From a virus: a DNA stretch of 64,000 nucleotides. Where the stretch lies: IMG/VR virus record IMGVR_UViG_3300036398_002324. One strand, 5' to 3'. Made by a program: the position numbers and the translations under genes. Shown here piece after piece: positions 23,663 through 59,380 of the stretch. The notes under the pieces are model-generated. The model saw nothing but the letters and a program-made list of their open reading frames with translations, searched no databases and was not told where the DNA came from. Within the stretch, counting starts at the first letter, position 1, and each line of letters begins with the position of its first letter.

Positions 23663-26600
23663 GTGAAAATAGACCAACTTACATCCGCAAACACTTTTGA
23701 AGAGTGGTTGTCAACAACTTCCGGATTAATTGCTGTTGCTAATAATCTTACCAACAATACTTACGGTGGATTTTTAGCAAACTCTTCAATCTCAATTGAA
23801 GGTAATCAATCTTCAATTAATGTTCGAACACATGCGAACATTAATACACTGAGGGCAAACACGGGCAATATTGCTAATTCTTATTTTGGAAAAAGCAATG
23901 CATCGGTTGAATTAGATTTAACCGTTGGAAGAAAACTAACAGCCAATACTCTTTACGCTGATACGATTTTTGTTTTTAACAATTTAGATGAAGCAATAAG
24001 TGTATATGATCAGGCAAATGCACAATTTATACATGCAAACTCTACTTTCGTTCAATCAAATTCTGCATATAATCATACAAATTCATCCTTTAATCATGCA
24101 AACGCAGAATTTGTAAAATCTAACTCCGCATTTGTTCGTTCCAATTCTGCATTCATACAATCTAATGCAGTTTATAATCACGCAAATAGCCAATTTATAC
24201 AATCCAATGCTGCATATAATCATGTAAATTCTTCATTTAATCATGCCAATTCTAGTTTTATTAAAGTTAATACGGCATTTGATTATACAAATTCACAGTT
24301 TATACAATCGAATGCTGCATTTGCTTTGAGTAATGCTGCATTTGTTCAAGCAAATGTAACGTTTCCTCAAGCCAATTTATCATTTGCTGCTGCCAATTCT
24401 CAATTTGCATACGCAAATGTTGTGTTAACACAATCGAATTCAGCATTCATTCGTGCTAATAATTCATTAGATGCAAACAATGGCGGATTGGTAACTGCTA
24501 CACCTGCATTTTCAACTTATTCATTGGTCTATACTCGATTTTTTGGCCAGTCTTATGGCGGTGGTGTTCTTGCACCTAATGGTGATGTGCATTTTGTACC
24601 TCTTCAAGCTGATATAGGACAAAAGATATCTGCTGCTGGTGTAGTATCAACATATTCGTTAGCTTATACAACATCTGCGGCTTCTGGTATTCATAATGGT
24701 GGTGTTCTAGCAACTAATGGAGACATTCACTTTGTTCCCAATAGTTCAAGAGTTGGACAAAAAATATCTTCTGCTGGTGTTGTATCGACTTACTCATTAG
24801 CATATACTACCACAAGTGCTTATGCAGGTGGTGTTCTAGCAACTAATGAAGAAATTTACTTTGTTCCTAATTTTGCAAGAGTTGGACAAAAAATCTCTTC
24901 CGCTGGTGTAGTTTCAACTTATTCATTAGTATATACAACTTCTTCCGCTTATCAAGGTGGTGTTCTTGCACAAAATGGTGACATTCACTTTGTTCCTAAT
25001 AGAGCAATAGTAGGACAAAAAATATCATCTAGCGGCGTTGTCACAACTTATTCTTTGGTATATACCACTGTTTTAGGCGCTTATGCAGGTGGTGTTCTTG
25101 CACCCAATGGTGATATTCATTTTATTCCTCTTAGTGCTAGAGTAGGACAAAAAGTATCATCTGCTGGTGTGGTATCTACTTATTCATTGCTGTATACGGT
25201 AACTAATGCTTATGTTGATGGTGTTCTTGCACCAAATGGAGATATACATTTTGTGCCTTTTAATGCTAACAGAGGACAAAAAATAACATCTGACGGTATT
25301 GTTTTAACGTATGCATTACCATCTATCGCTGCCAGTGGATTTTTTGGCGGAGTTTTAAATACAAATAAAGAACTAATTCCAGTTCCATATTCCAGTAGTT
25401 TTGGATTAAAATTAGACTTATCAAAGACATATTCATATGATTTCGCTAATCTTACAATAAGATCGACTGAAGGTATAAAAACTGAAGTTGCTGCTGGACA
25501 AGATTCTATCATAATCAAAAATCCTATTGGTGGAACAGGAGCAAATACCGCAAATCTAACACCAAACACATTGACTGCAAATGTGACTGTAACTATTCCA
25601 AATGAATCCTTTACAGTAGGTTTCAGAAATATACCAAAAGCAAATGCATTCGTTTACTCTGATATAGTTTCAACATATGCACTAGTATACACTAGTACAA
25701 CTCCAGCAGTTTATTCTGGTGGTGTTCTTGATCCAAATGGTGATGTTCATTTTGTTGCGTTTAATGCGCCAGTTGGACAAAAAGTATCTACAGCCGGTGT
25801 GGTATCAACATATTCGTTAGTATATACAACTGGTGGGTCATATTCTGGTGGTGTTCTTGCACAGAATGGTGATATACATTTTGTTCCTTTTCTTGCCAAT
25901 AGAGGACAAAAAGTATCATCGGCTGGTGTAGTATCCACTTATTCGTTGGTATACACAACGAGTCGTGCATATGCTGGTGGCGTTCTTGCACCTAATGGTG
26001 ATATTCATTTTGTTCCCCGTAGCGCAAACAGAGGACAAAAAATATCATCGGCTGGTGTAGTATCCACTTATTCGTTGGTATACACAACGAGTTTTGCATA
26101 CTGGGGTGGTGTTCTTGCACCAAATGGCGACATCCATTTTATTCCTCAAGATGCAAATAGAGGGCAAAAAATATCCGCATCGGGTGTTGTGTCAACATAT
26201 TCACTAGCATATACTACTTCGAGCGCATATTATGGTGGTGTTCTTGATTCAAATGGTGACATACATTTTGCTCCATATAACGCAAATAGAGGACAAAAAG
26301 TTTCTGCTTCTGGTGTAGTATCCACTTATTCAATTTTATTTAACGTGCTGGAACAAAGTGCTTATAATGGTGGTGTTCTTGCACCGAATGGTGACATTCA
26401 TTTTCTTCCTGGTGATGCTAATAGAATATTAAAAATATCATCTTCTGGAATAATATCCACTTATGCAGTTGCCACACCTCTTGATTATAGTGGTGGTGTT
26501 CTTGCACCAAATGGTGAAGTTCATCTTGCTCCAGACGATGGTTTTCGTGGTCAAAAAATAACATTATCAACCGAACACACGCTTGGTAGAGATGATTTAG

Positions 26601-26857
26601 GTAAACAAGTTAAATCTTCAACATTTGCAACAATAAACATTCCAGCAGCAACATTTACTGATGGTGATGTGATCACGATTGTAAATAACGGTAGAGGAAA
26701 CGTTAATATTAATTGTGGAGCTATAACAACGTCATATATTGCGGGAATAAATACAGATGTATCTCGTGTTAAAATTGGTCCAAGAGGTATCGTAACAATC
26801 ATGTTTACAGACATTGACAGTTGTGTTTTATCTGGAACAATAATAGAATTAGAGTAA
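23663..26857 (+). CDS. Tail-fibre/adhesin-like protein: heptad stalk plus two inserted 7-repeat (beta-propeller-like) domains
   Basis: GTG start. N-terminal ANTFEEW motif, xxNxAF heptads, 2x7 copies of STYSLVYT..AYxGGVLAPNGDIHFVP..A..GQKIS..GVV. Scaffold is paralogous to 26877-28202. Confidence 0.8.
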   Translation: MKIDQLTSANTFEEWLSTTSGLIAVANNLTNNTYGGFLANSSISIEGNQSSINVRTHANINTLRANTGNIANSYFGKSNASVELDLTVGRKLTANTLYADTIFVFNNLDEAISVYDQANAQFIHANSTFVQSNSAYNHTNSSFNHANAEFVKSNSAFVRSNSAFIQSNAVYNHANSQFIQSNAAYNHVNSSFNHANSSFIKVNTAFDYTNSQFIQSNAAFALSNAAFVQANVTFPQANLSFAAANSQFAYANVVLTQSNSAFIRANNSLDANNGGLVTATPAFSTYSLVYTRFFGQSYGGGVLAPNGDVHFVPLQADIGQKISAAGVVSTYSLAYTTSAASGIHNGGVLATNGDIHFVPNSSRVGQKISSAGVVSTYSLAYTTTSAYAGGVLATNEEIYFVPNFARVGQKISSAGVVSTYSLVYTTSSAYQGGVLAQNGDIHFVPNRAIVGQKISSSGVVTTYSLVYTTVLGAYAGGVLAPNGDIHFIPLSARVGQKVSSAGVVSTYSLLYTVTNAYVDGVLAPNGDIHFVPFNANRGQKITSDGIVLTYALPSIAASGFFGGVLNTNKELIPVPYSSSFGLKLDLSKTYSYDFANLTIRSTEGIKTEVAAGQDSIIIKNPIGGTGANTANLTPNTLTANVTVTIPNESFTVGFRNIPKANAFVYSDIVSTYALVYTSTTPAVYSGGVLDPNGDVHFVAFNAPVGQKVSTAGVVSTYSLVYTTGGSYSGGVLAQNGDIHFVPFLANRGQKVSSAGVVSTYSLVYTTSRAYAGGVLAPNGDIHFVPRSANRGQKISSAGVVSTYSLVYTTSFAYWGGVLAPNGDIHFIPQDANRGQKISASGVVSTYSLAYTTSSAYYGGVLDSNGDIHFAPYNANRGQKVSASGVVSTYSILFNVLEQSAYNGGVLAPNGDIHFLPGDANRILKISSSGIISTYAVATPLDYSGGVLAPNGEVHLAPDDGFRGQKITLSTEHTLGRDDLGKQVKSSTFATINIPAATFTDGDVITIVNNGRGNVNINCGAITTSYIAGINTDVSRVKIGPRGIVTIMFTDIDSCVLSGTIIELE

Positions 26858-26876
26858 TTATTTTTAGAAAACAAAA

Positions 26877-28202
26877 ATGGCAATAAATCAACTATCAACT
26901 TCGAATACATTTACAGACTGGTTGCAAGCAACTTCTTCATTAATTGAAGTTGCCAACAGTCTTACAAGTAATGCTAGTGGCGGTCTTATTGCCAACTCTT
27001 CAATCTTCATTCAAGGTGAAGGTGCATCATTAAACGTTCGTACACTTGCGAATATTAATACTCTGCAAGCAAATACTGCAAACATTGGTAATACCAGATT
27101 TAGTGAGAGTAATGTAAATATTCAACTAGATTTAACTGTTGGAAGAAATTTATCGACAGTTAGTATTTACGCAAACGAGATTTATCAGAAGGGTGCAAAT
27201 CTTCTACCGCTAATACAAAAGGTGCAACCCGCATATGATCACGCAAATGCTGGATTTATTCATGCAAACTCTGGTTTTATAAAAACCAATTCTGCATATG
27301 ATTCTGTAAATGCAGCATTTATACATGCCAATTCTGGTTTTATTCAAACTAATGCTGCGTTTGACCATGCTAATTCTGGTTTCATTCAAGCCAACTCAGC
27401 GTTTGTACATGCTAATTTTGGATTCACGCAAACCAACACAGCTTACACTCAAACAAATGCTGCTTTTATTACAGCAAACAGTGGATTTATTCAAACCAAT
27501 GCAGCATTTGACCACGCTAATTCAGGATTTATTCAAGCTAACACTTCTTTTGCACGTACTAATGCTGCATTCAATCATGCGAATTCAGGATTCATACAAG
27601 CAAACGCTGCATTTGATCATGCTAATTCTGGATTCATTCAAGCCAATGCAGCATTCAATAGTGCAAATGCTGCATTTATTCGTGCCAATAACTCCTTAGA
27701 TGCAAACAATGGTGGTATTGTTACTGGTAATGTTATCGTTAGATCATCTGTCGGTATAAAAGTAGAAAATGATATTTTACAAGATGCTATTATTCTAAAA
27801 GGCAGAAATGGTGGAACTAGTTCATATTCTGCAACACTTGTACCAGACACACTTACAAGTAACGTTACTGTTACGATTCCGGGTGAAAATTTCACTGTTG
27901 GTTTTAGAAACATACCATCGGCTGGAGATAAAACATTTTATACTTTACAAGTTTCTGATGTTGGAAAATATATTAAAGTTGCTGGTACAATCACGATACC
28001 AAACAACACATTTTCAGAAAATGATGTTGTAACACTTTATAATAATACAAGCACTAGCAAAACAATAACATGTGATATAGCTGTAGCTTACATTGCAGCA
28101 TTTGATACTGATGTTTCTAGTGTATCTCTTTCACCAAGAGGCATTGCAACAATTTTGTTTACAACTTCTAATAGTTGTGTGATTATGGGGAATGCTATAT
28201 AA
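26877..28202 (+). CDS. Tail-fibre-like protein (insertion-free paralogue of 23663-26857)
   Basis: MAINQLSTSNTFTDWL N-terminus, ANxAF heptads, ANNSLDANNGG, FTVGFRNIP and a PRGIATILF C-terminal domain. Confidence 0.8.
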   Translation: MAINQLSTSNTFTDWLQATSSLIEVANSLTSNASGGLIANSSIFIQGEGASLNVRTLANINTLQANTANIGNTRFSESNVNIQLDLTVGRNLSTVSIYANEIYQKGANLLPLIQKVQPAYDHANAGFIHANSGFIKTNSAYDSVNAAFIHANSGFIQTNAAFDHANSGFIQANSAFVHANFGFTQTNTAYTQTNAAFITANSGFIQTNAAFDHANSGFIQANTSFARTNAAFNHANSGFIQANAAFDHANSGFIQANAAFNSANAAFIRANNSLDANNGGIVTGNVIVRSSVGIKVENDILQDAIILKGRNGGTSSYSATLVPDTLTSNVTVTIPGENFTVGFRNIPSAGDKTFYTLQVSDVGKYIKVAGTITIPNNTFSENDVVTLYNNTSTSKTITCDIAVAYIAAFDTDVSSVSLSPRGIATILFTTSNSCVIMGNAI

Positions 28203-30673
28203 TGGCAGTTATTTTTAGAAATAGAGTTTATGGTATTACTGACCAATACGCCACTCAAAATACTTATTTTCAATTAACAGGTCCTGTTGGTCTTCCAACA
28301 GGACTAAGCTCTGGTCAAGCGTACTGGAGAATTGATGGTGCAGGAACAGGCTTTGGTCTTAGCAATGTTGCATCCGGAAATAGTATATATTATTCTATGA
28401 GTACGGGAACTGATTGGGAAGTTGGAAAAGGTAGACTGTATATTTCTGATTTTAGAGTTTACACTCAAAGGGCTTCATATACAATCAGTGATGCGTATTC
28501 GGATGGTGTTCTTGGAAATGATGGTTACATTCATTTTGTTCCATACAATGCGACTGTTGGACAAAAGATATCCGACGCTGGTGTAGTGTCAACCTATTCA
28601 TTAATTTACACCACTGCTGGTGCTTATGTTGGTGGTGTTCTTGGTGATGATGGTCATGTTTATTTTGTTCCCCACAATGCAAGAGTTGGACAAAAAGTAG
28701 ATTTCAATGGTACTGTATCAACCTATTCATTAGTATATACAACGGCTGGAGCGTATGCCGGCGGCGTTCTGGATCCATTTCAACAAGATCATATTCATTT
28801 TGTTCCACACAATGCTAATAGGGGACAACGAGTTGGCCAAGGAACAGATTATGGTTTAGTTTCAACTTATTCATTACCCTATACAACAGCTGGTGCATAT
28901 TGGGGTGGATTTCAAGGTCCATTTGCTGCAAACTTTGTTAATTATAATGCAAACCGAGGAATGAAAGTAGAGGCTAATACTGATCCCGAAACAACAACAT
29001 CAGCGCCTCCAGTAATTACAACATATACATTACCCTATACCGCTGCTGGTGCTTATCGAGGCGCTGTTTTAGATTATTTAGGTAATGCTCATTATGTTCC
29101 ATACAATGCGAATAGGGGTACTTATAATCAAGACGGAGTAGTTGAAAATATTGTAACGACATATTCACTTGCATATACAACAACGGGTGCATATTCTGGT
29201 GGTGTTTTAGACGACCTAGGTCGTCCACAAATTTTGCCTGATGGTTCTGAAGACAGTGGTCCCAGTATTCATTTTGTTCCACATAATGCAAGAGTCGGTC
29301 AGAAAATATTTCAACAATCAACTTTTGATTCAACCTTCAGTGGCATGGTAACAACATATGCTTTACCTTACACAACTACCGGAGCATATGAGGGTGGTGT
29401 AATTGAGGTGTTTTCAAAAAATATTTACTTTGTTCCACGTAATGCCAATCAAATACAAAAATTATCTTACAATACAATAACTAGAGACACAGTATATTCT
29501 TCATCAAATAATAATAATCCCGTTGATTTTGATTTTACTCCGAGCATATACGAAGGTCCTTACGTTGTTTATCCAAATGCTGTTGCCGTTGGTGGTGTTC
29601 CATCGGGGGATAACAATGAAATTGGACCGGATTTATCTGGTTGGAGAGCATTTCGTGGTTTGTTAGAACAAGGCGTTCTGGGCGGTAATGTATTTAATAA
29701 TCGTGGAGTTGGTGGAATTGTATCGACATATTCTTTGGGTTATACGCTTACTAATTCTTATCGTGGTGGTGTTCTTGCACCAAACGGAGACATTCACTTT
29801 GTTCCTTATCTGGCTAATAGAGGACAAAAAATCTCTTCATCTGGTGTCGTATCAACATATTCATTAGTTTATACTTCCGACGCTTATCTGGGTGGTGTTC
29901 TTGCACCAAATGGTGATATACATTTTATTCCTCATAGTGCTAGAGTAGGACAAAAAATTAATATAAACGGTGTTGTATCCACATATTCATTACTATATAC
30001 AACGCTCACTTCTTATGGTGGTGGTGTTCTTGCACCAAATGGAGACGTACACTTTATTCCTTATAGTGCCGAAAGAGGACAAAAAGTCTCTGCTGCTGGC
30101 GTTGTGTCAACATATTCATTAGTTTATACCGGTCCTGCCGTTTATGGTGGTGGTGTTCTTGCGCCTAATGGCGATATACATTTTGTACCGTTACAGGGTA
30201 ACAGAGGACAAAAAATATCTGCTGCTGGCGTAGTGTCAACATATTCATTGATATATACGAATTCCGGTGGTTCTTATTGGAGTGGTGTTGTTGCACCAAA
30301 TGGTGATATACATTTTATTCCTGCCAATGCTGTTGTAGGACAAAAAATATCTATTAATGGTACCGTTTCAACATATTCGTTAGTGTATACTGCAACTCTT
30401 GCTCATGCTGGTGGTGTTCTTGCGCCAAATGGTGATATTCATTTTGTTCCTTGGTGGGGAAATCGAGGACAAAAAATATCTGCTGCTGGTGTAGTGTCAA
30501 CATATCCATTGATACATACAAATGCCACTGGTTCTCATTTTGGTGGTATTCTCAGACCTAATGGTGACATACATTTTGTACCTACAAATGCTGTTGGTCA
30601 AATGATTTCAACACTTCCTAGTACACCATTACCTATGAATGCATGTCTCAGTCCATTTTTAAACAAACTTTAA
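28202..30673 (+). CDS. Putative receptor-binding protein with two 7-repeat propeller domains
   Basis: Likely start is the ATG at 28202 (TAATG overlap). N-terminal domain WEVGKG...[insert]...TRDTVYSSSN; ends LSPFLNKL. Confidence 0.78.
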   Translation: MAVIFRNRVYGITDQYATQNTYFQLTGPVGLPTGLSSGQAYWRIDGAGTGFGLSNVASGNSIYYSMSTGTDWEVGKGRLYISDFRVYTQRASYTISDAYSDGVLGNDGYIHFVPYNATVGQKISDAGVVSTYSLIYTTAGAYVGGVLGDDGHVYFVPHNARVGQKVDFNGTVSTYSLVYTTAGAYAGGVLDPFQQDHIHFVPHNANRGQRVGQGTDYGLVSTYSLPYTTAGAYWGGFQGPFAANFVNYNANRGMKVEANTDPETTTSAPPVITTYTLPYTAAGAYRGAVLDYLGNAHYVPYNANRGTYNQDGVVENIVTTYSLAYTTTGAYSGGVLDDLGRPQILPDGSEDSGPSIHFVPHNARVGQKIFQQSTFDSTFSGMVTTYALPYTTTGAYEGGVIEVFSKNIYFVPRNANQIQKLSYNTITRDTVYSSSNNNNPVDFDFTPSIYEGPYVVYPNAVAVGGVPSGDNNEIGPDLSGWRAFRGLLEQGVLGGNVFNNRGVGGIVSTYSLGYTLTNSYRGGVLAPNGDIHFVPYLANRGQKISSSGVVSTYSLVYTSDAYLGGVLAPNGDIHFIPHSARVGQKININGVVSTYSLLYTTLTSYGGGVLAPNGDVHFIPYSAERGQKVSAAGVVSTYSLVYTGPAVYGGGVLAPNGDIHFVPLQGNRGQKISAAGVVSTYSLIYTNSGGSYWSGVVAPNGDIHFIPANAVVGQKISINGTVSTYSLVYTATLAHAGGVLAPNGDIHFVPWWGNRGQKISAAGVVSTYPLIHTNATGSHFGGILRPNGDIHFVPTNAVGQMISTLPSTPLPMNACLSPFLNKL

Positions 30674-30682
30674 AGAAAAAAT

Positions 30683-32995
30683 ATGGCTTTTGTTGCTTTA
30701 GATAGAGCGAACGTAACATCGAATACGACTGGAACTGGTACCATATTATTTGGACCTACTGTTTCGGGATATACTGATTTTTCAGATGTTGGAAATAATA
30801 ATCAAACTTATTATGCAATTACTGATGCATCAAATTTTGAGATAGGTGTTGGTACAGTAAAAACGCAGATTCCGTCAACATATTCTCTATTATATACAAG
30901 TAATAATGCATATTACGGTGGTGTACTCGCACAAAATGGTGACATACATTTTGTTCCTTCATTTGCCGAAGTTGGACAAAAGATATCTGCTTCTGGTGTA
31001 GTTTCAACATACTCATTGATATACACACAAAATACTGATAATGGAGCACATATTGGTGGTGTTCTTGCAACAAATGGAGATATTCACTTTGTTCCTAGCG
31101 GCAGTCCGGTTGGACAAAAAGTGTCTTCGTTAGGCGTAGTATCAACATATTCGTTGATATACACTACAGCATTTGCTTATCATGGTGGTGTTTTAGATTT
31201 AAATGGAGATATTCATTTTATACCAAGAGATGCACCCGTTGGACAAAAAATATCCTCGGCTGGTGTCGTGTCAACATATTCATTGGTATATACCAGATCG
31301 GATGCATACGCCGGTGGTGTTTTAGATTTAAATGGAGATATACATTTTGTTCCCAATGAATCTGAAATTGGTCAAAAAATTTCAACAACTTCGGGTGTCG
31401 TATCAACATATTCATTAGTATATACTACTTCTGATGCATATCAAAGTGGTGTTCTTGCATCCAATGGCGATGTTTATTTCATTCCGGAAAATGCTTCGGT
31501 TGGACAGAAAATATCTAAAACTGGTGTTGTGTCAACTTATTCGTTAATATACACCAACACTTTGGCATATCACGCTGGCGGAGTTCTTGCTCCCAATGGA
31601 GATATACATTTTGTTCCATATCGTTCACCCGTTGGACAAAAAATTTCAACGACCACTGGCATTGTTTCAACATATTCACTAGCTTACACCACATCGACTT
31701 CTTATTTTGGTGGTGTTTTGGATGCAAATAATAACATACAATTCGTTCCATTTGATGCAACAGTTGGACAAAAAATAACAACACCTCGAATGGAAAGAGA
31801 CTTTGTACTTGCATCAAGTAACAATGATAATAAAGTAAATTTCTCTGCTGGCACGAAAAGTGTTTATATTCCACAGCCATCAACACTAGTGCAAGGTTCC
31901 GCTGCTACGGCAGATGATTCTTCAATTGATTCGAGTTTAAATGCGTGGAAAGGACTTCAAAGAAGTTTGATGAAAAGCATTACAGCTGGAACGACATTCA
32001 AGAATCCTATTCCATCAACATATTCATTGACATATACTTTTGAAAACGCATACAGTGGCGGTGTTCTTGCAGTTAATGGTGACATCCACTTTGTACCATA
32101 TAATGTAAATATTGGACAAAAATTATCTCCAACTGGTATTAGTTCTACTTATTCTGTTATAGCTTATGGAGGTTATTGGGGCGGTGTTCTTGCGCCTAAT
32201 GGCGATATACATTTCGTACCTAACGATGCAACTGTTGGACAAAAGATATCTGCTTCTGGTGTTGTGTCAACATATTCATTAGTGTATCAAAGAGGTGAGG
32301 CGTTTGTTGGTGGTGTTGTTGCACCAAATGGAGATATACATTTCGTGCCTTGGGCTTCAAGAATAGGCCAAAAAGTATCTACCACTGGTGTAGTTTCGAC
32401 ATACTCATTGGTAAATACTGGAACCCTTGCTTATTATGAAGGTGGTGTTCTTGCACCAAATGGTGAAGTACACTTTGTTCCTTTTCTTACTCCTGTTGGA
32501 CAAAAAATATCAGCATCAGGTGTTGTGTCTACATATTCATTAGCATATACTACTACTGAAGCCTACGCTGGTGGAGTCATTGCACCCAATGGAGACATAC
32601 ATTTTGTTCCTTATGATGCAAGAGTTGGACAAAAAGTCTCTATTGATGGTGTGGTTTCGACATATTCATTAGCATACACTCGTAACAATGCATACGCTGG
32701 AGGTGTTCTTGCACCAAATGGTGAAATTCATTTTGTTCCATTTTGGGCAGCTCGTGATGATTTGGGTGTGGGAATTGGTCAAAAAATATCTTTAAATGGC
32801 GTTGCATCTACATATCCAGTTACACCAATTTCTATGGGCGCAAATCAAGGACCATATTCTTTTGGTGTTTTAGATTTTGATGGTAATATTCATTTTATTC
32901 CAGTAGGACAAAACGGCGTATCACAAAAAATATACACATTATCTAAACCCCTAGATAGTGAAATAGCACTCGGTTCATTCTTAAATAAGTTATAA
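30683..32995 (+). CDS. Putative receptor-binding protein with two 7-repeat propeller domains
   Basis: MAFVALDRANVTSNTTGTGT...FEIGVGT[insert]RDFVLASSN...VNFSAGTK; ends LGSFLNKL. Confidence 0.8.
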   Translation: MAFVALDRANVTSNTTGTGTILFGPTVSGYTDFSDVGNNNQTYYAITDASNFEIGVGTVKTQIPSTYSLLYTSNNAYYGGVLAQNGDIHFVPSFAEVGQKISASGVVSTYSLIYTQNTDNGAHIGGVLATNGDIHFVPSGSPVGQKVSSLGVVSTYSLIYTTAFAYHGGVLDLNGDIHFIPRDAPVGQKISSAGVVSTYSLVYTRSDAYAGGVLDLNGDIHFVPNESEIGQKISTTSGVVSTYSLVYTTSDAYQSGVLASNGDVYFIPENASVGQKISKTGVVSTYSLIYTNTLAYHAGGVLAPNGDIHFVPYRSPVGQKISTTTGIVSTYSLAYTTSTSYFGGVLDANNNIQFVPFDATVGQKITTPRMERDFVLASSNNDNKVNFSAGTKSVYIPQPSTLVQGSAATADDSSIDSSLNAWKGLQRSLMKSITAGTTFKNPIPSTYSLTYTFENAYSGGVLAVNGDIHFVPYNVNIGQKLSPTGISSTYSVIAYGGYWGGVLAPNGDIHFVPNDATVGQKISASGVVSTYSLVYQRGEAFVGGVVAPNGDIHFVPWASRIGQKVSTTGVVSTYSLVNTGTLAYYEGGVLAPNGEVHFVPFLTPVGQKISASGVVSTYSLAYTTTEAYAGGVIAPNGDIHFVPYDARVGQKVSIDGVVSTYSLAYTRNNAYAGGVLAPNGEIHFVPFWAARDDLGVGIGQKISLNGVASTYPVTPISMGANQGPYSFGVLDFDGNIHFIPVGQNGVSQKIYTLSKPLDSEIALGSFLNKL

Positions 32996-32998
32996 CAT

Positions 32999-34420
32999 AT
33001 GTCATTTATTGTCAGAGATTTGGTTCAAATGGGAACCGCTACAACAGGTAACAATGATTTATTATTGTTTCCTACCTCTACATCCAAGTATAGAACTTTA
33101 AATGCTTCTGATGCTAATAACAAAGTTCATTATTTCGTTACTAGTGGATCGCGTTGGGAAGTTGGAATAGGTACCATTCAAGTAAGTTCACCAGACATTT
33201 ATTCAAACGTGCAGTTTACCATAACCAGAGATGAAATTTCGGATTCTCAAGATAATGGTAGAAAAATTAATTTTCCAGCTGGCGTTAAAAATGTTACAAT
33301 AACTTTTCCTGCAGAACTTGTTCCGGGAACCATACCTACTTCAGATGATGCATCAACCACGAATAATTTAATTTCATGGCGTGGTCTAGAGAGGGAATTG
33401 AGACAGGGTGTTATAAGAGGTACGCCATTTGATAATGGTGGCGTTGGCGGTATAGTATCAACTTATTCGTTAATTTATACAACTTCTCAAGCTTATCGTG
33501 GTGGTGTTCTTGCACCTAATGGTGATATTCACTTTGTTCCAGGTTTCGCAAATAGGGGTCAAAAAGTATCTGCATCTGGTGTTGTATCGACTTATTCGTT
33601 AGTTTATACTACTGCTGGTGTTGATGGTCAAGGTGCATACTGGGGTGGTGTTCTTGCACCAAATGGCGACATCCATTTTATTCCTCATGATGCAAATAGA
33701 GGGCAAAAAATATCCGCATCGGGTGTTGTATCAACGTATTCTTTAGTTTATTCACTCACATCTGGTTATCTGGGTGGTGTTCTTGCACCAAATGGTGATG
33801 TTCATTTTGTGCCTTTTAATGCTGAGAGAGGTCAAAAAATATCTGCTGCTGGCGTTGTATCAACATATTCATTAGTATACACTAGAACCGTTGCTTATGC
33901 AGGTGGCGTTCTTGCACCCAATGGTGACATACATTTTGTTCCTTCATTTGCTGAGAGAGGTCAAAAAATATCCTCTGCTGGTGTTGTTTCAACTTATTCA
34001 TTAGTTTATACAACGGCAAATGCTGCATTTTTTGGAGGCGTTCTTGCACAGAATGGTGATATTCATTTTGTTCCTTATCGTGCCAACAGAGGGCAAAAAA
34101 TATCCTCTGCTGGTGTCGTATCAACATATTCTTTAGTTTATACTACTGGTGCGGCTTATTCTGGCGGTGTTCTTGCACCTAATGGTGATATTCATTTTAT
34201 TCGTTTTAGTGCAATCGTAGGACAAAAAGTGTCTGCTGATGGCGTTGTAACAACTTATTCTCTAATTACTACTGGAACTCAGCTACATTATGGAGGCGTT
34301 CTTGCACAGAATGGTGATATTCATTTTGCTCCTTTTTCTGGAAACATAGGACAGAAGATTTCAACGGGCATAAATATATCGCCAGGTCGAGTTTTATCGC
34401 CATTTTTTAACAAATATTAA
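32999..34420 (+). CDS. Putative receptor-binding protein with one C-terminal 7-repeat propeller
   Basis: Uninterrupted N-terminal domain (WEVGIGT...TRD...INFPAGVK), a W-containing helical linker, 7 repeats; ends LSPFFNKY. Confidence 0.8.
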   Translation: MSFIVRDLVQMGTATTGNNDLLLFPTSTSKYRTLNASDANNKVHYFVTSGSRWEVGIGTIQVSSPDIYSNVQFTITRDEISDSQDNGRKINFPAGVKNVTITFPAELVPGTIPTSDDASTTNNLISWRGLERELRQGVIRGTPFDNGGVGGIVSTYSLIYTTSQAYRGGVLAPNGDIHFVPGFANRGQKVSASGVVSTYSLVYTTAGVDGQGAYWGGVLAPNGDIHFIPHDANRGQKISASGVVSTYSLVYSLTSGYLGGVLAPNGDVHFVPFNAERGQKISAAGVVSTYSLVYTRTVAYAGGVLAPNGDIHFVPSFAERGQKISSAGVVSTYSLVYTTANAAFFGGVLAQNGDIHFVPYRANRGQKISSAGVVSTYSLVYTTGAAYSGGVLAPNGDIHFIRFSAIVGQKVSADGVVTTYSLITTGTQLHYGGVLAQNGDIHFAPFSGNIGQKISTGINISPGRVLSPFFNKY

Positions 34421-34440: not shown

Positions 34441-35787
34441 ATGTATAATCGAGACAAAATCATTAACACAATGAAAGAGATTTATAGTGAATCTAAAACA
34501 ATCAAACCGTATGTTGTAATTGCACAGCCGCGAAGAGACTTAAAAGAAACACCTGCACAAAATTTTGACGGTTATGAGGGTCTTCATATTGATTTGATGG
34601 GATTCTCTCACGGTTTCTGCAACATTGGCGGTGAAAAAGTTGACGTTGCACGAAACTATCTTATTGAACAAGCATTAGAGAGCGGTGCTAAGTATCTTTT
34701 GTTTGTTGGCGAAGATACTGTACTTCCTTATGATGGCTTTAAAAAGCTTATGAAAACTGCTGAAGAGAATCCTGGAGCAGTTGTTACAGGAGTTTATTAT
34801 ATTAAATGCTCCGATGCTATGATTATGGTTCGTGAAGAAGATTGGATTACTATTCCTAATGTTGATCCCGGTCAAGTCATTGAAGCGTGGCAAACTGGTA
34901 TGGATGTTATGTTAGTTCCGATTGATTTGCTCAAGCAAATGAAAGAAGAAGAACCAGAACTTCCTTTCTGTTGTATTGGTAATAACATCAACGACGAAAT
35001 TCCATTTATCGGTGAAGATAACTTCTTTGTGCATCGTCTACACAAGAGAGGAACAAAGCTTCTTGTAAATACAGATGTTCAATGTCTACATATGGACTTA
35101 GCAACAGGCATGTATACAGCACATCCTTCCGTTGATTTAACAAAATATTATACAAATATTAAACCAACTCGTCCACTAACATTGGATGATAAAGAGTTTA
35201 TTGACCGTCGTTGGATTGATAGATTGCCGGATGGCACAAGTTACAAATCTTTCATTCAAAGTAAATTGGATAAAAAAGAACCAATCCGTTTCAATATGGG
35301 TTCTGGCGGTGACAAGATTCCAGGATATCTGAGTGTTGATAAAAACAATAAAGATGCCGACATTAAAGTAGATGTTTTAAAAATGGATTTACCAGAAAAT
35401 GTTACAGACGAAATTCTTGCAAGTCATTTAATTGAACATTTGCCACAACATCGTGCGCCAGAGATTCTGCAAAAATGGCACAAAACATTAAAACCTTCCG
35501 GTAAACTTGTTTTAGAAACTCCGAATTTTGATGAAATGTGTAGAGATTATGTTCAATCAAAAGATGAGGTTGAAAAAAGAACTTTGATGACATGTATTTT
35601 TGGTGCTGCGGCAGAAGAAGAATCTGCTGAGACACGGGAAAAAGGTGCGTTATATCCACATCTTTGGGGTTACACACCACAATCACTTACTGATTTGTGT
35701 AAAGTAATTGGATTTAAAGACATTAAAATATTGCAACCAATAGGAAAGCATCCAGGTAAAAATTTCAGATTGGAAGCTGTTAAATAA
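34441..35787 (+). CDS. Glycosyltransferase (GT-A/GT2-like) fused to a class I SAM-dependent methyltransferase
   Basis: N-half: VDVARNYL..ALE...YLLFVGED, GVYY, GEDNFF..R, VNTDVQCLH. C-half: FNMGSG, YLSVD, EILASHLIEHL, LKPSGKLVLETPN. Confidence 0.75.
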   Translation: MYNRDKIINTMKEIYSESKTIKPYVVIAQPRRDLKETPAQNFDGYEGLHIDLMGFSHGFCNIGGEKVDVARNYLIEQALESGAKYLLFVGEDTVLPYDGFKKLMKTAEENPGAVVTGVYYIKCSDAMIMVREEDWITIPNVDPGQVIEAWQTGMDVMLVPIDLLKQMKEEEPELPFCCIGNNINDEIPFIGEDNFFVHRLHKRGTKLLVNTDVQCLHMDLATGMYTAHPSVDLTKYYTNIKPTRPLTLDDKEFIDRRWIDRLPDGTSYKSFIQSKLDKKEPIRFNMGSGGDKIPGYLSVDKNNKDADIKVDVLKMDLPENVTDEILASHLIEHLPQHRAPEILQKWHKTLKPSGKLVLETPNFDEMCRDYVQSKDEVEKRTLMTCIFGAAAEEESAETREKGALYPHLWGYTPQSLTDLCKVIGFKDIKILQPIGKHPGKNFRLEAVK

Positions 35788-57471: not shown

Positions 57472-57906
57472 ATGAGCAAACTTGATGATGTATTACAGAT
57501 GTGGGCAACTGATTCTATCATTGATAGAACTGAACCTGGTAAAGCACTGATTGACATTCCAAAACTTCATTCGAAGTATTTAAACATTCTTTCTTCACAT
57601 AGATTGTTAGTCAAAGAAGCCGAATTTCAATATAACAAATGGCGTAAATTAAAGTGGGAATACTACACTGGCAAACTTGACGAAGAATTGTTGCATCATT
57701 ATGGATGGCAACCATTTCCTTTTACACTCAAATCTGAAATCAATACATACTTAGAAGCAGACGAAGATATCAATAAGTATCTTGCTAGAAAACTATTACA
57801 TGAAGAAATTGTGGAAGTATGCCAAGCAATCATAAAAGAACTAAACAACCGAACATGGGAGCTTCGGTCATTCATTGACTGGGAAAAGTTTATTCAAGGT
57901 GTTTGA
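57472..57906 (+). CDS. uvsY: Recombination mediator protein
   Basis: W..DS.ID, IPKLHSKYL, WEYYTGK, I.W.KF..G. Confidence 0.88.
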   Translation: MSKLDDVLQMWATDSIIDRTEPGKALIDIPKLHSKYLNILSSHRLLVKEAEFQYNKWRKLKWEYYTGKLDEELLHHYGWQPFPFTLKSEINTYLEADEDINKYLARKLLHEEIVEVCQAIIKELNNRTWELRSFIDWEKFIQGV

Positions 57907-59380
57907 TTTAATTTTACGAAAACAGAACGAAGCGTTCATAAGAATTGATTGTGAGAAGAGTGTCGCTTACGAACTCTCTTCTTATTTTGAATTTTTTGTT
58001 CCTGGTTATCAGTTCATGCCAACATACAAGAATAAATTGTGGGATGGAAAAGTTCGTCTTTTCGATTTGCGTTCACATACAATTTATTCTGGTCTGTTGC
58101 CGTACATTGAAAAGTTTTGCGCTGAAAGAGAATATAAGTATGAGATTGACTCAGCAATCACTGCAACTGAGAATTTCTCAGCATTAGAAGCTAAAGAGTT
58201 TATAGACAGTCTTGAACTGCACAAAACCATTATACAAGAAGGTGCAAGAGAATATCAAGTAAAAGCATTCATTTCTGCCGTTAGAAATAGAAGAATGTTG
58301 TTATTATCACCGACTGGTTCAGGTAAGTCCTTCATTTTGTATCTCATTCTGAGATATGTTCAGCATAAAAAACACAAAAAAGGTTTGTTGATTGTTCCGA
58401 CAACATCACTTGTTGAACAGATGTACTCCGATTTTGCATCTTACGGATACGATTCAGAGAAATATTGTCATCGTCAATATTCTGGTAAAGACAAGAACAC
58501 AGACAAGTTTCTTACAATCACCACATGGCAATCAATCTATAAAAATCCACCAGAATACTTTGAGCAGTTTGATTTTGTTTTTGGTGATGAAGCACACCAG
58601 TTCAAAGCAAAGTCTCTGACTACCATTATGTCTGGATTAAAGAATGCATCTTACAGAATTGGATGTACAGGAACAATTGATGGTACACAAACACACAAAC
58701 TTGTTCTTGAGGGATTGTTTGGACCAGTTTATCAATCAACGACAACAGCTAAACTTATTGAAGATAAGATGTTAGCAGAATTTAAAATAAAATGTTTGAT
58801 ATTAAAATATTCTGAAGAAGTTTGTAAACAGTCCAGAGCATGGGACTATCAGAGTGAAATAAACTACATAGTTAGTAACAAAGCACGAAATGAATTTATT
58901 CGTAATCTTACACTATCACTAGAGGGCAATTCTCTTGTGCTATTTAATTTGGTTGAAAAACATGGCAAACAACTTCACAAACTCATTGAAGAGAAAGCTA
59001 GTAATAGGCATGTTTTTTTTGTGTATGGTGGAACAGATGTTCAAGTCCGTGAACAAGTTCGTGCCATTACCGAAAAAGAAAATAACGCCATCATCGTGGC
59101 TTCTTACGGCACTTTTTCTACCGGTATTAATATACGTAATCTTCATAACGTTATTTTTGCCTCACCGTCTAAGTCGAGAGTTAGAAATTTACAATCAATT
59201 GGAAGAGGCTTGCGAATTGGAGACAACAAAAAAGAAGCGGTACTATTTGATATAGCAGATGATTTTCGCATAGGTAAACATGTTAATTTCACATTGAAAC
59301 ATTTTGCCGACCGTGTTAAAATATATGATGGAGAAAAGTTCAAATACAAATTCTACAACATAGAGGTCAAAAATGCATAA
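57899..59380 (+). CDS. uvsW: SF2 DNA helicase
   Basis: WDGKVRLF, SPTGSGKS, GDEAH, GCTGT, LQSIGRGLR; probable GTG start at 57899 overlapping uvsY. Confidence 0.93.
   Translation: MFDLILRKQNEAFIRIDCEKSVAYELSSYFEFFVPGYQFMPTYKNKLWDGKVRLFDLRSHTIYSGLLPYIEKFCAEREYKYEIDSAITATENFSALEAKEFIDSLELHKTIIQEGAREYQVKAFISAVRNRRMLLLSPTGSGKSFILYLILRYVQHKKHKKGLLIVPTTSLVEQMYSDFASYGYDSEKYCHRQYSGKDKNTDKFLTITTWQSIYKNPPEYFEQFDFVFGDEAHQFKAKSLTTIMSGLKNASYRIGCTGTIDGTQTHKLVLEGLFGPVYQSTTTAKLIEDKMLAEFKIKCLILKYSEEVCKQSRAWDYQSEINYIVSNKARNEFIRNLTLSLEGNSLVLFNLVEKHGKQLHKLIEEKASNRHVFFVYGGTDVQVREQVRAITEKENNAIIVASYGTFSTGINIRNLHNVIFASPSKSRVRNLQSIGRGLRIGDNKKEAVLFDIADDFRIGKHVNFTLKHFADRVKIYDGEKFKYKFYNIEVKNA

Follow-up and report, generated by a model that had tools for sequence, protein, structure and literature searches.

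The 64,000-nt stretch of DNA analyzed here (the window) is part of an 80,233-nt metagenomic viral record, IMG/VR IMGVR_UViG_3300036398_002324, which is ~45% complete. The source phage is an uncultured T4-like myovirus, and its portal protein is ~52% identical to those of T4-like cyanophages. Four genes in the window (g23663, g28175, g30683, and g32999) carry arrays of a short repeat. A hidden Markov model (HMM) of the repeat, derived from the sequence itself, identifies exactly 49 copies in these genes, each of 43 amino acids (129 nt); they are divided 14+14+14+7 and form seven sets of seven. Each set is treated here as one β-propeller (A1, A2, B1, B2, C1, C2, and D1) and each repeat as one blade, A2b4 being the fourth blade of A2 (Table 1). 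A protein has one or two propellers, placed either at its end or within it. A1 and A2 are inserted in a C-terminal domain that g23663 has in common with g26877, a propeller-less gene with the same N-terminus and 7-residue-periodic shaft, and an annotated phage tail fibre is 36% identical to residues 1–105 of g32999. We infer that the four repeat-bearing genes encode tail-fibre or baseplate-attached receptor-binding proteins.

The framework columns of the 49 blades have an entropy near zero. High-entropy columns are 9–11 (the loop after YT), 14 (the residue before GG, where 14 different residues occur), and 29, 30, and 32 (after P), and columns 6, 20, 33, and 39–40 are of moderate entropy. The repeat HMM and these entropies thus agree with an earlier note on this DNA, which had described 49 repeats with a nearly fixed framework and three variable slots. 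An AlphaFold2 model of g32999 has seven sets of strands, 28 in all, each repeat supplying four (VSTYSL, YxGGVL, IHFVP, and GQKIS), and the predicted local distance difference test (pLDDT) score is ~90 in the propeller. The top Foldseek matches in the PDB are streptogramin B/virginiamycin B lyases (2z2o/2qc5), with template modeling (TM) scores of 0.87–0.90 normalised to the target, followed by NHL domains and designed symmetric propellers, and a fold search of BFVD returned only uncharacterised phage propeller proteins. Because successive loops of a four-strand meander alternate between faces, columns 9–11, 14 (at the start of strand 2), and 29–32 are predicted to lie on one propeller face, with the APNGD loop and columns 39–40 on the other, much as the earlier note had expected of the variable slots. 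B1 is far more degenerate than the other six propellers: its loops carry long inserts (one of 14 residues in blade 6, for example), and fourth strands are truncated.

Table 1. Genes, propellers, and near-identical tracts of the locus, with two neighbouring genes (positions in the window).
Feature	Position	Strand	Description or basis
g23663, fibre-type, 1064 aa	23663..26857	+	ORF; N-terminal anchor, 7-residue-periodic shaft, C-terminal domain
Propeller A1 (g23663)	24512-25432	+	seven blades, repeat HMM
Propeller A2 (g23663)	25670-26578	+	seven blades, repeat HMM
g26877, propeller-less paralogue of g23663, 441 aa	26877..28202	+	sequence comparison
g28175, 823 aa from ATG at 28202	28202..30673	+	ORF open from 28175; called at 11326-13797 in contig L012
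Propeller B1 (g28175)	28460-29482	+	degenerate, long loop inserts
Propeller B2 (g28175)	29723-30625	+	canonical
g30683, 770 aa	30683..32995	+	propellers C1 and C2
Propeller C1 (g30683)	30875-31795	+	seven blades, repeat HMM
Propeller C2 (g30683)	32015-32950	+	seven blades, repeat HMM
g32999, 473 aa	32999..34420	+	N-terminal beta-rich anchor (about residues 9-102), linker, propeller D1
Propeller D1 (g32999)	33458-34378	+	seven blades, repeat HMM
Exchange tract copy 1, A2b4 into A2b5	26095..26202	+	vs 33634-33741, 105/108 (self-BLAST)
Exchange tract copy 2, D1b2 into D1b3	33634..33741	+	identical in diverged strain L011
Tandem 63-nt tract pair, A2b2/b3 and A2b3/b4 junctions	25901-25963 and 26030-26092	+	62/63
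Exchange tract in A1b5	25088..25153	+	vs 29891-29956, 63/66
Partner tract in B2b2 (different gene)	29891..29956	+	Logan contigs L018-L021 end inside, at 29913
D1b5/D1b7 pair	34033-34076 and 34291-34334	+	43/44
DUF4815 protein (PHROG 358), 2099 aa	17139-23438		directly upstream of fibre genes
448-aa protein	34441-35787		between propeller genes and 1620-aa fibre gene

The closest relative in fold is Vgb (PF24684; PDB 2qc5, 2z2n/o/p), likewise a seven-bladed propeller of ~43-residue blades, with which the phage repeat has the motif G-D-I-aromatic-F ... G-x-K-I-S/T in common. At a cut-off of 50 bits, Pfam PF24684 (Vgb_lyase) matches g23663 (99.6 bits), g28175 (80.1), and g32999 (59.9), and g30683 has no match above threshold despite carrying the same repeats. 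The phage propellers differ from Vgb in that sequence identity is only 17–21%, the propeller is a module on fibre scaffolds that is present seven times, the blades are ~75–80% identical to each other in protein, and no blade-specific conserved catalytic residues are seen.

This kinship raises the possibility that the propellers are fibre-borne enzymes (lyase, lactonase, or glycan-degrading), with loop variation as neutral drift around a conserved catalytic scaffold. The lyases are the best matches in sequence as well as in fold, some metagenome sources label homologues as lactonases, and each blade has conserved His, Asp, Gln, and Lys residues. However, an alignment of 30 single-propeller homologues shows invariant or nearly invariant residues only in the repeated framework; all loop slots are variable in every blade, and neither blade-specific invariant polar residues nor a conserved blade-specific catalytic constellation was seen. 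Conservation restricted to the framework, with loop slots variable in every blade, argues for variable binding surfaces and against one conserved active site, and the variable face is therefore a candidate binding surface. The number of propellers (seven in this genome and up to nine in relatives) also fits poorly with an enzyme, as does the wholesale replacement of propellers behind conserved anchors described below, which is the pattern of a host-range module. We consider an enzymatic role unlikely.

Evidence for exchange among blades comes from near-identical nucleotide tracts. Long shared runs are expected in this locus, because the genome is AT-rich and the blades are almost alike in protein sequence. 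The null was made by exchanging codons at random, column by column, among blades that have the same residue there, which keeps proteins and codon usage and destroys linkage, and runs with at most one mismatch were compared in register across all propellers. The longest run in the null is 60 nt; two observed runs exceed it, of 96 nt (A2b4/D1b2) and 63 nt (A2b2-3/A2b3-4), and all others fall inside it. When scores were set against the rank-matched 99th percentile of the null, A2b4/D1b2 (93 versus 65), A2b2-3/A2b3-4 (58 versus 49), and A1b5/B2b2 (51 versus 43) stood out. Three exchange tracts are thus statistically supported, two of which link different genes.

The longest of these has a core (26095–26190 versus 33634–33729) that matches at 95 of 96 nt, the sole difference being CAA/CAT (Gln/His) at the first residue after P. 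This is as the earlier note had reported, and self-BLAST extends the match beyond the core. The 96-nt tract begins mid-blade, beside a loop insert of 5 residues that only D1b2 has, and the sequences on either side of the tract have diverged as far as paralogues. The match between the two copies of the tandem tract, also reported in the earlier note, holds as well; these copies are 129 nt apart and lie inside a 242-nt stretch of 83% identity. In a further pair found by self-BLAST, 29892–29932 matches 30282–30322 (40 of 41 nt).

Among the contigs that contain the g26877 sequence exactly as in the window, ten (L012–L021), from ENA, four JGI samples, one NCBI assembly, and four Logan runs, were compared; these match the window at 99.76–100% with no indels. 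Three contigs span 21,326 nt (16877–38202) with 3–4 single-nucleotide polymorphisms (SNPs) each, none of them in a blade. In three full-locus assemblies from other samples, no blade of the 49 differs from its counterpart in the window, and the blades of seven partial assemblies are nearly identical as well. The arrangement and both tract copies are therefore reproducible, and the tracts are not assembly artefacts, a possibility that the earlier note had named. The recurrence of one genotype across samples also speaks against rapid diversification. The four Logan contigs begin at 26161, 26188, or 26688 and share a single end (Table 1); most of these ends lie inside exchange tracts, indicating that short-k assemblies break there.

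A more distant contig, L011, is 93.5% identical to the window over 32358–34104 and is itself mosaic, with zero-difference blocks alternating with blocks of 11–24 differences per 96 nt. Its region 653–1816, equivalent to window 32999–34420, encodes a 96%-identical variant of g32999 with only five blades. Exactly 258 nt (two blades) between D1b5 and D1b7 are absent, with the join in the pair of 43/44 identity; either true unequal crossing over or collapse during assembly would explain this gap. The D1b2 copy of the 96-nt tract is kept in L011. At the syntenic A2 site of a second strain type (L022-type, described below), only 75–76 of the 96 nt match, and a blade related to the tract sits one position further on in that allele.

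These strains bear on the view that no real exchange has occurred, the blades being old paralogues and the tracts leftovers of recent duplication or artefacts of assembly or polishing. Mean blade identity is low and synonymous divergence high (see below), most shared runs are inside the codon-shuffle null, the window derives from a metagenome-assembled viral record, assemblers visibly break at the tracts, and the two-blade gap of L011 falls exactly at a near-identical repeat, as collapse would give. However, the same tracts and arrangement are recovered by different pipelines from different samples, and the D1b2 copy is unchanged in a strain with an overall divergence of 6.5%. Moreover, a mid-blade patch with paralogue-level flanks fits conversion better than duplication, and the strain mosaics have sharp boundaries beside identical stretches of more than 250 nt. 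An account without exchange is, in our judgment, quite unlikely.

Most blades are nevertheless old. Their mean pairwise nucleotide identity is 0.657, and uncorrected differences per synonymous site (pS) average 0.56 between paralogous blades, which is near saturation for this composition; support for recombination or gene conversion among blades, as claimed in the earlier note, comes from the three supra-null tracts, cross-gene sister blades, and strain mosaics. Blades at the same position are no more alike than others. Orthology by blade position was considered and rejected, being absent both across propellers and across phages. At identical residues, 58% of pairs use the same codon (0.583, versus 46–49% expected), which suggests that some shared history or homogenisation persists among the blades.

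A maximum-likelihood nucleotide tree of the repeats, a check suggested in the earlier note, contains supported sisters from different genes (A2b4+D1b2, 100/98; B2b1+D1b1, 97/68; A1b5+D1b6, 96/79) and no clustering by blade position (33 changes, versus 33.9 for shuffled labels), but weak clustering by gene (20 changes, versus 26.9 +/- 1.8) and by propeller (26 changes, versus 34.0 +/- 1.8) remains. Together, the tree and the divergence pattern are those of slow concerted evolution rather than fast shuffling.

Between paralogous blades, nonsynonymous differences (pN) in the framework are 0.165 versus a pS of 0.544, and in the variable columns pN is 0.60 versus a pS of 0.64. Among orthologous blades (18 pairs, 85–99% identical), pN/pS stands at 0.10 in the framework, versus 0.34 at the variable columns. 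The slots are thus under relaxed constraint, and positive selection is not demonstrable.

Larger differences between strains take the form of mosaic alleles. The contigs L022 and L023 are 88.8% identical to the window overall, and L024 and L025 are likewise informative. Conserved parts of L022 and L023 include the end of the shaft (98%), the A1–A2 linker (96%), g26877 (99%, its neighbouring propellers differing between the strains), and A1b6-b7 (96–97%), whereas A1b2-b4 (70–78%) and all seven A2 blades (A2b1-b7, 63–84%) are divergent; mismatch-free stretches of up to 463 nt abut divergent segments. The replaced blades have a framework pS of 0.52, on a par with that of paralogues, indicating that these blades were recombined in and not mutated at their slots. 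No donor for the replaced L022 blades was found among the 49 blades of the window (best identity 0.84). B1 is 86–100% identical between strains and is better kept than A1 and A2.

Clusters of 4–9 SNPs also occur in otherwise identical contigs, at 28615–28675 (L019), 26713–26734 (L017), and 27380–27440 (L021), and are mostly synonymous in L019 and L021. Ectopic conversion from the phage's own paralogues was ruled out as their source, there being no donor within 6 mismatches anywhere in the window. They resemble short patches acquired from diverged strains by allelic recombination. Recombination at the level of blades and propellers is thus real but sporadic and acts at the population level, and the evidence points to exchange that is mostly between strains and of low frequency, with occasional ectopic conversions.

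The earlier note had gone further, proposing that recombination among blades builds a combinatorial library of binding surfaces without a reverse transcriptase. The second half of this proposal agrees with our searches, as no RVT_1 (PF00078) match is present in the 80,233-nt record (~45% complete). Diversity-generating retroelements act on phage tail-fibre genes (BPP-1 Mtd type), and the locus resembles their targets in setting variable residues in the rigid scaffold of a putative phage receptor-binding protein. It differs in having no RVT_1 in the record and no pair of template and variable repeats with adenine-specific changes, and in that differences between alleles are as marked at synonymous framework sites (pS 0.52) as at the slots.

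A dedicated high-frequency generator, either of this type or working by programmed conversion from silent donor blades, could nonetheless be imagined to build a combinatorial library within each genome. A fixed framework with variable slots and near-identical tracts between genes are what it might leave behind, 49 potential donor blades are present in one locus, and the excess of same-codon pairs suggests some homogenisation. Such a generator is hard to reconcile with 49 identical blades in three full-locus assemblies and nearly identical ones in seven partial assemblies, with the lack of any internal donor for either the replaced blades or the SNP patches, with a pN/pS of 0.34 at the slots, and with the synonymous divergence of replaced blades, which denotes wholesale replacement rather than targeted mutation. 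We regard it as highly improbable, and the within-genome library of the earlier note is not upheld.

In our view, these are probably host-recognition fibre propellers that have been diversified by ordinary homologous recombination and not by a dedicated library-building mechanism. Strong purifying selection holds the four blade strands in place and leaves the loops of the predicted variable face (columns 9–11, 14, and 29–32) free to vary. The framework, conserved in every blade and partly at the DNA level, would in turn offer homology to the general recombination machinery of the phage. Occasional short ectopic gene-conversion patches of 60–110 nt would pass between blades of one genome, including blades of genes 5–7.5 kb apart. 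More importantly, runs of blades or whole propellers would be replaced between co-circulating strains, yielding mosaic alleles with conserved anchors and shafts. The enzymes responsible are presumably those of general recombination. The earlier note had suggested help from UvsY/UvsW, and a UvsW-like helicase is indeed encoded at 57875–59380, but its role is generic and nothing ties it to this locus.

A near-single codon is used in all 49 blades at several framework positions, with a same-codon frequency of 0.95 for the Asn of column 21, 0.88 for columns 3 and 17, and 0.84 for column 26, where 0.4–0.66 is expected. Such uniform codon use may be a remnant of ancestry, a product of homogenisation, or an effect of selection acting on the DNA.

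Several considerations weigh against recombining receptor-binding propellers. The solved relatives of the fold are enzymes, and receptor binding is our inference. Ectopic conversion rests on just three tracts, which do not set its direction, and an old duplication of a blade could instead account for the tandem 63-nt tract. A search among the window's 49 blades yielded no donor for the replaced ones, and exchange between strains is read from the mosaic pattern. The assignment of variable slots to one face follows from β-meander topology in predicted secondary structure. Finally, all comparison sequences are contigs from short-read metagenomes, and assemblers break, and may collapse, at these repeats, as seen in the Logan contig ends and the L011 gap.

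The propeller belongs to a large family, of which metagenomes contain more than 846 members. In related viral contigs, three such genes stand in tandem, each encoding one to four propellers, with up to ~60 blades, and related phages likewise show sporadic near-identical tracts between blades. Among 115 single-propeller homologues, 27 pairs have N-termini that are 95–100% identical, and the propellers of these pairs are 61–100% identical (mean 74%); propeller identity is ~67–70% whatever the identity of the N-termini. Because the identity of the propeller is uncoupled from that of the N-terminus, the propeller behaves as a replaceable tip behind a conserved anchor. Many homologues (P0016, P0026, P0049, P0069, and others) fuse the propeller to a LamG/concanavalin-A-like domain (PF13385), which marks it as a mobile module that occurs on several scaffolds. 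A megablast search of the 10.8-kb region against cultured phage genomes gave no match, the 96-nt tract was not found in an exact-pattern scan of IMG/VR, and a 44-nt core was not found in an exact-pattern scan of JGI metagenome contigs, scans from whose output near-identical records may be excluded.

A bolder extension of the recombination account, which we hold to be possible but doubtful, is that the 43-residue blade is the unit of combinatorial exchange across the phage metapopulation. The framework DNA (notably the GGVLAPNGDIHF core) would then stay alike enough to serve as a universal joint for recombination, and in-register splicing of blades from any propeller, gene, or related phage would reshape a multivalent receptor-binding face. 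If true, blade shuffling would be the viral counterpart of fungal WD40 repeat-shuffling (Paoletti et al. 2007, PMC1805685; Chevanne et al. 2010, PMC2873952), brought about by general recombination.

With respect to known systems, the closest behaviour is the motif-mediated mosaicism of T-even fibre adhesins (PMC3157838). In gp38 of T-even phages, conserved glycine-rich motifs separate hypervariable segments, and motif-mediated recombination occurs in gp37/gp38 (Trojet et al. 2011, PMC3157838). Both systems belong to the T4 superfamily and combine a constant framework with variable segments and a conserved anchor with a variable tip, and in both, conserved motifs would serve as recombination joints from which mosaic adhesins arise. 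They differ in fold, which is unrelated: searches of PHROG with the propeller proteins gave only marginal, repeat-driven matches, and no match to a gp38 or gp37 family was found in Pfam or PHROG. The unit of exchange also differs, being here a blade or a whole propeller, with seven such modules over four genes.

In structure, the nearest analogy is the fungal WD40 repeat-shuffling genes of the HNWD/HET-E type. Both consist of propeller repeats in which the framework is fixed and a few positions on one face vary, and in both, exchange of repeats within and between paralogous genes has been proposed as a source of recognition diversity without a reverse transcriptase. The fungal genes reportedly have near-identical repeat DNA, unstable repeat numbers, and positive selection at the variable positions. 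The phage locus lacks near-identical repeat DNA and signs of positive selection: its blades are 66% identical in DNA, pN/pS at the slots is 0.34, and only three tracts are detectable. A change in repeat number is seen once, in the possibly collapsed contig L011.

The host range of abundant uncultured T4-like aquatic phages is set by largely unannotated proteins. The locus has a compact and recognisable architecture, in which idealised Vgb-like propellers, the putative receptor-binding modules, sit on fibre scaffolds and tips are swapped behind conserved anchors. The family thus provides a practical marker by which such modules may be found in metagenomes, and its rigid blades with loops on one face offer a tractable scaffold for work on the evolution of phage specificity, with the caution that propeller repeats fragment, and possibly collapse, short-read assemblies.

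The locus lies in a structural module, with baseplate wedge genes upstream and genes for the neck, terminase, sheath, portal, prohead protease, scaffold, and major head protein downstream. The DUF4815 protein that precedes the fibre genes is likely a large baseplate or fibre component. In the 448-aa protein that follows the propeller genes, the N-terminal half is glycosyltransferase-like (PHROG 34859) and the C-terminal half is an S-adenosylmethionine (SAM) methyltransferase (Pfam Methyltransf_23/11); the protein may modify fibre proteins or host glycans.

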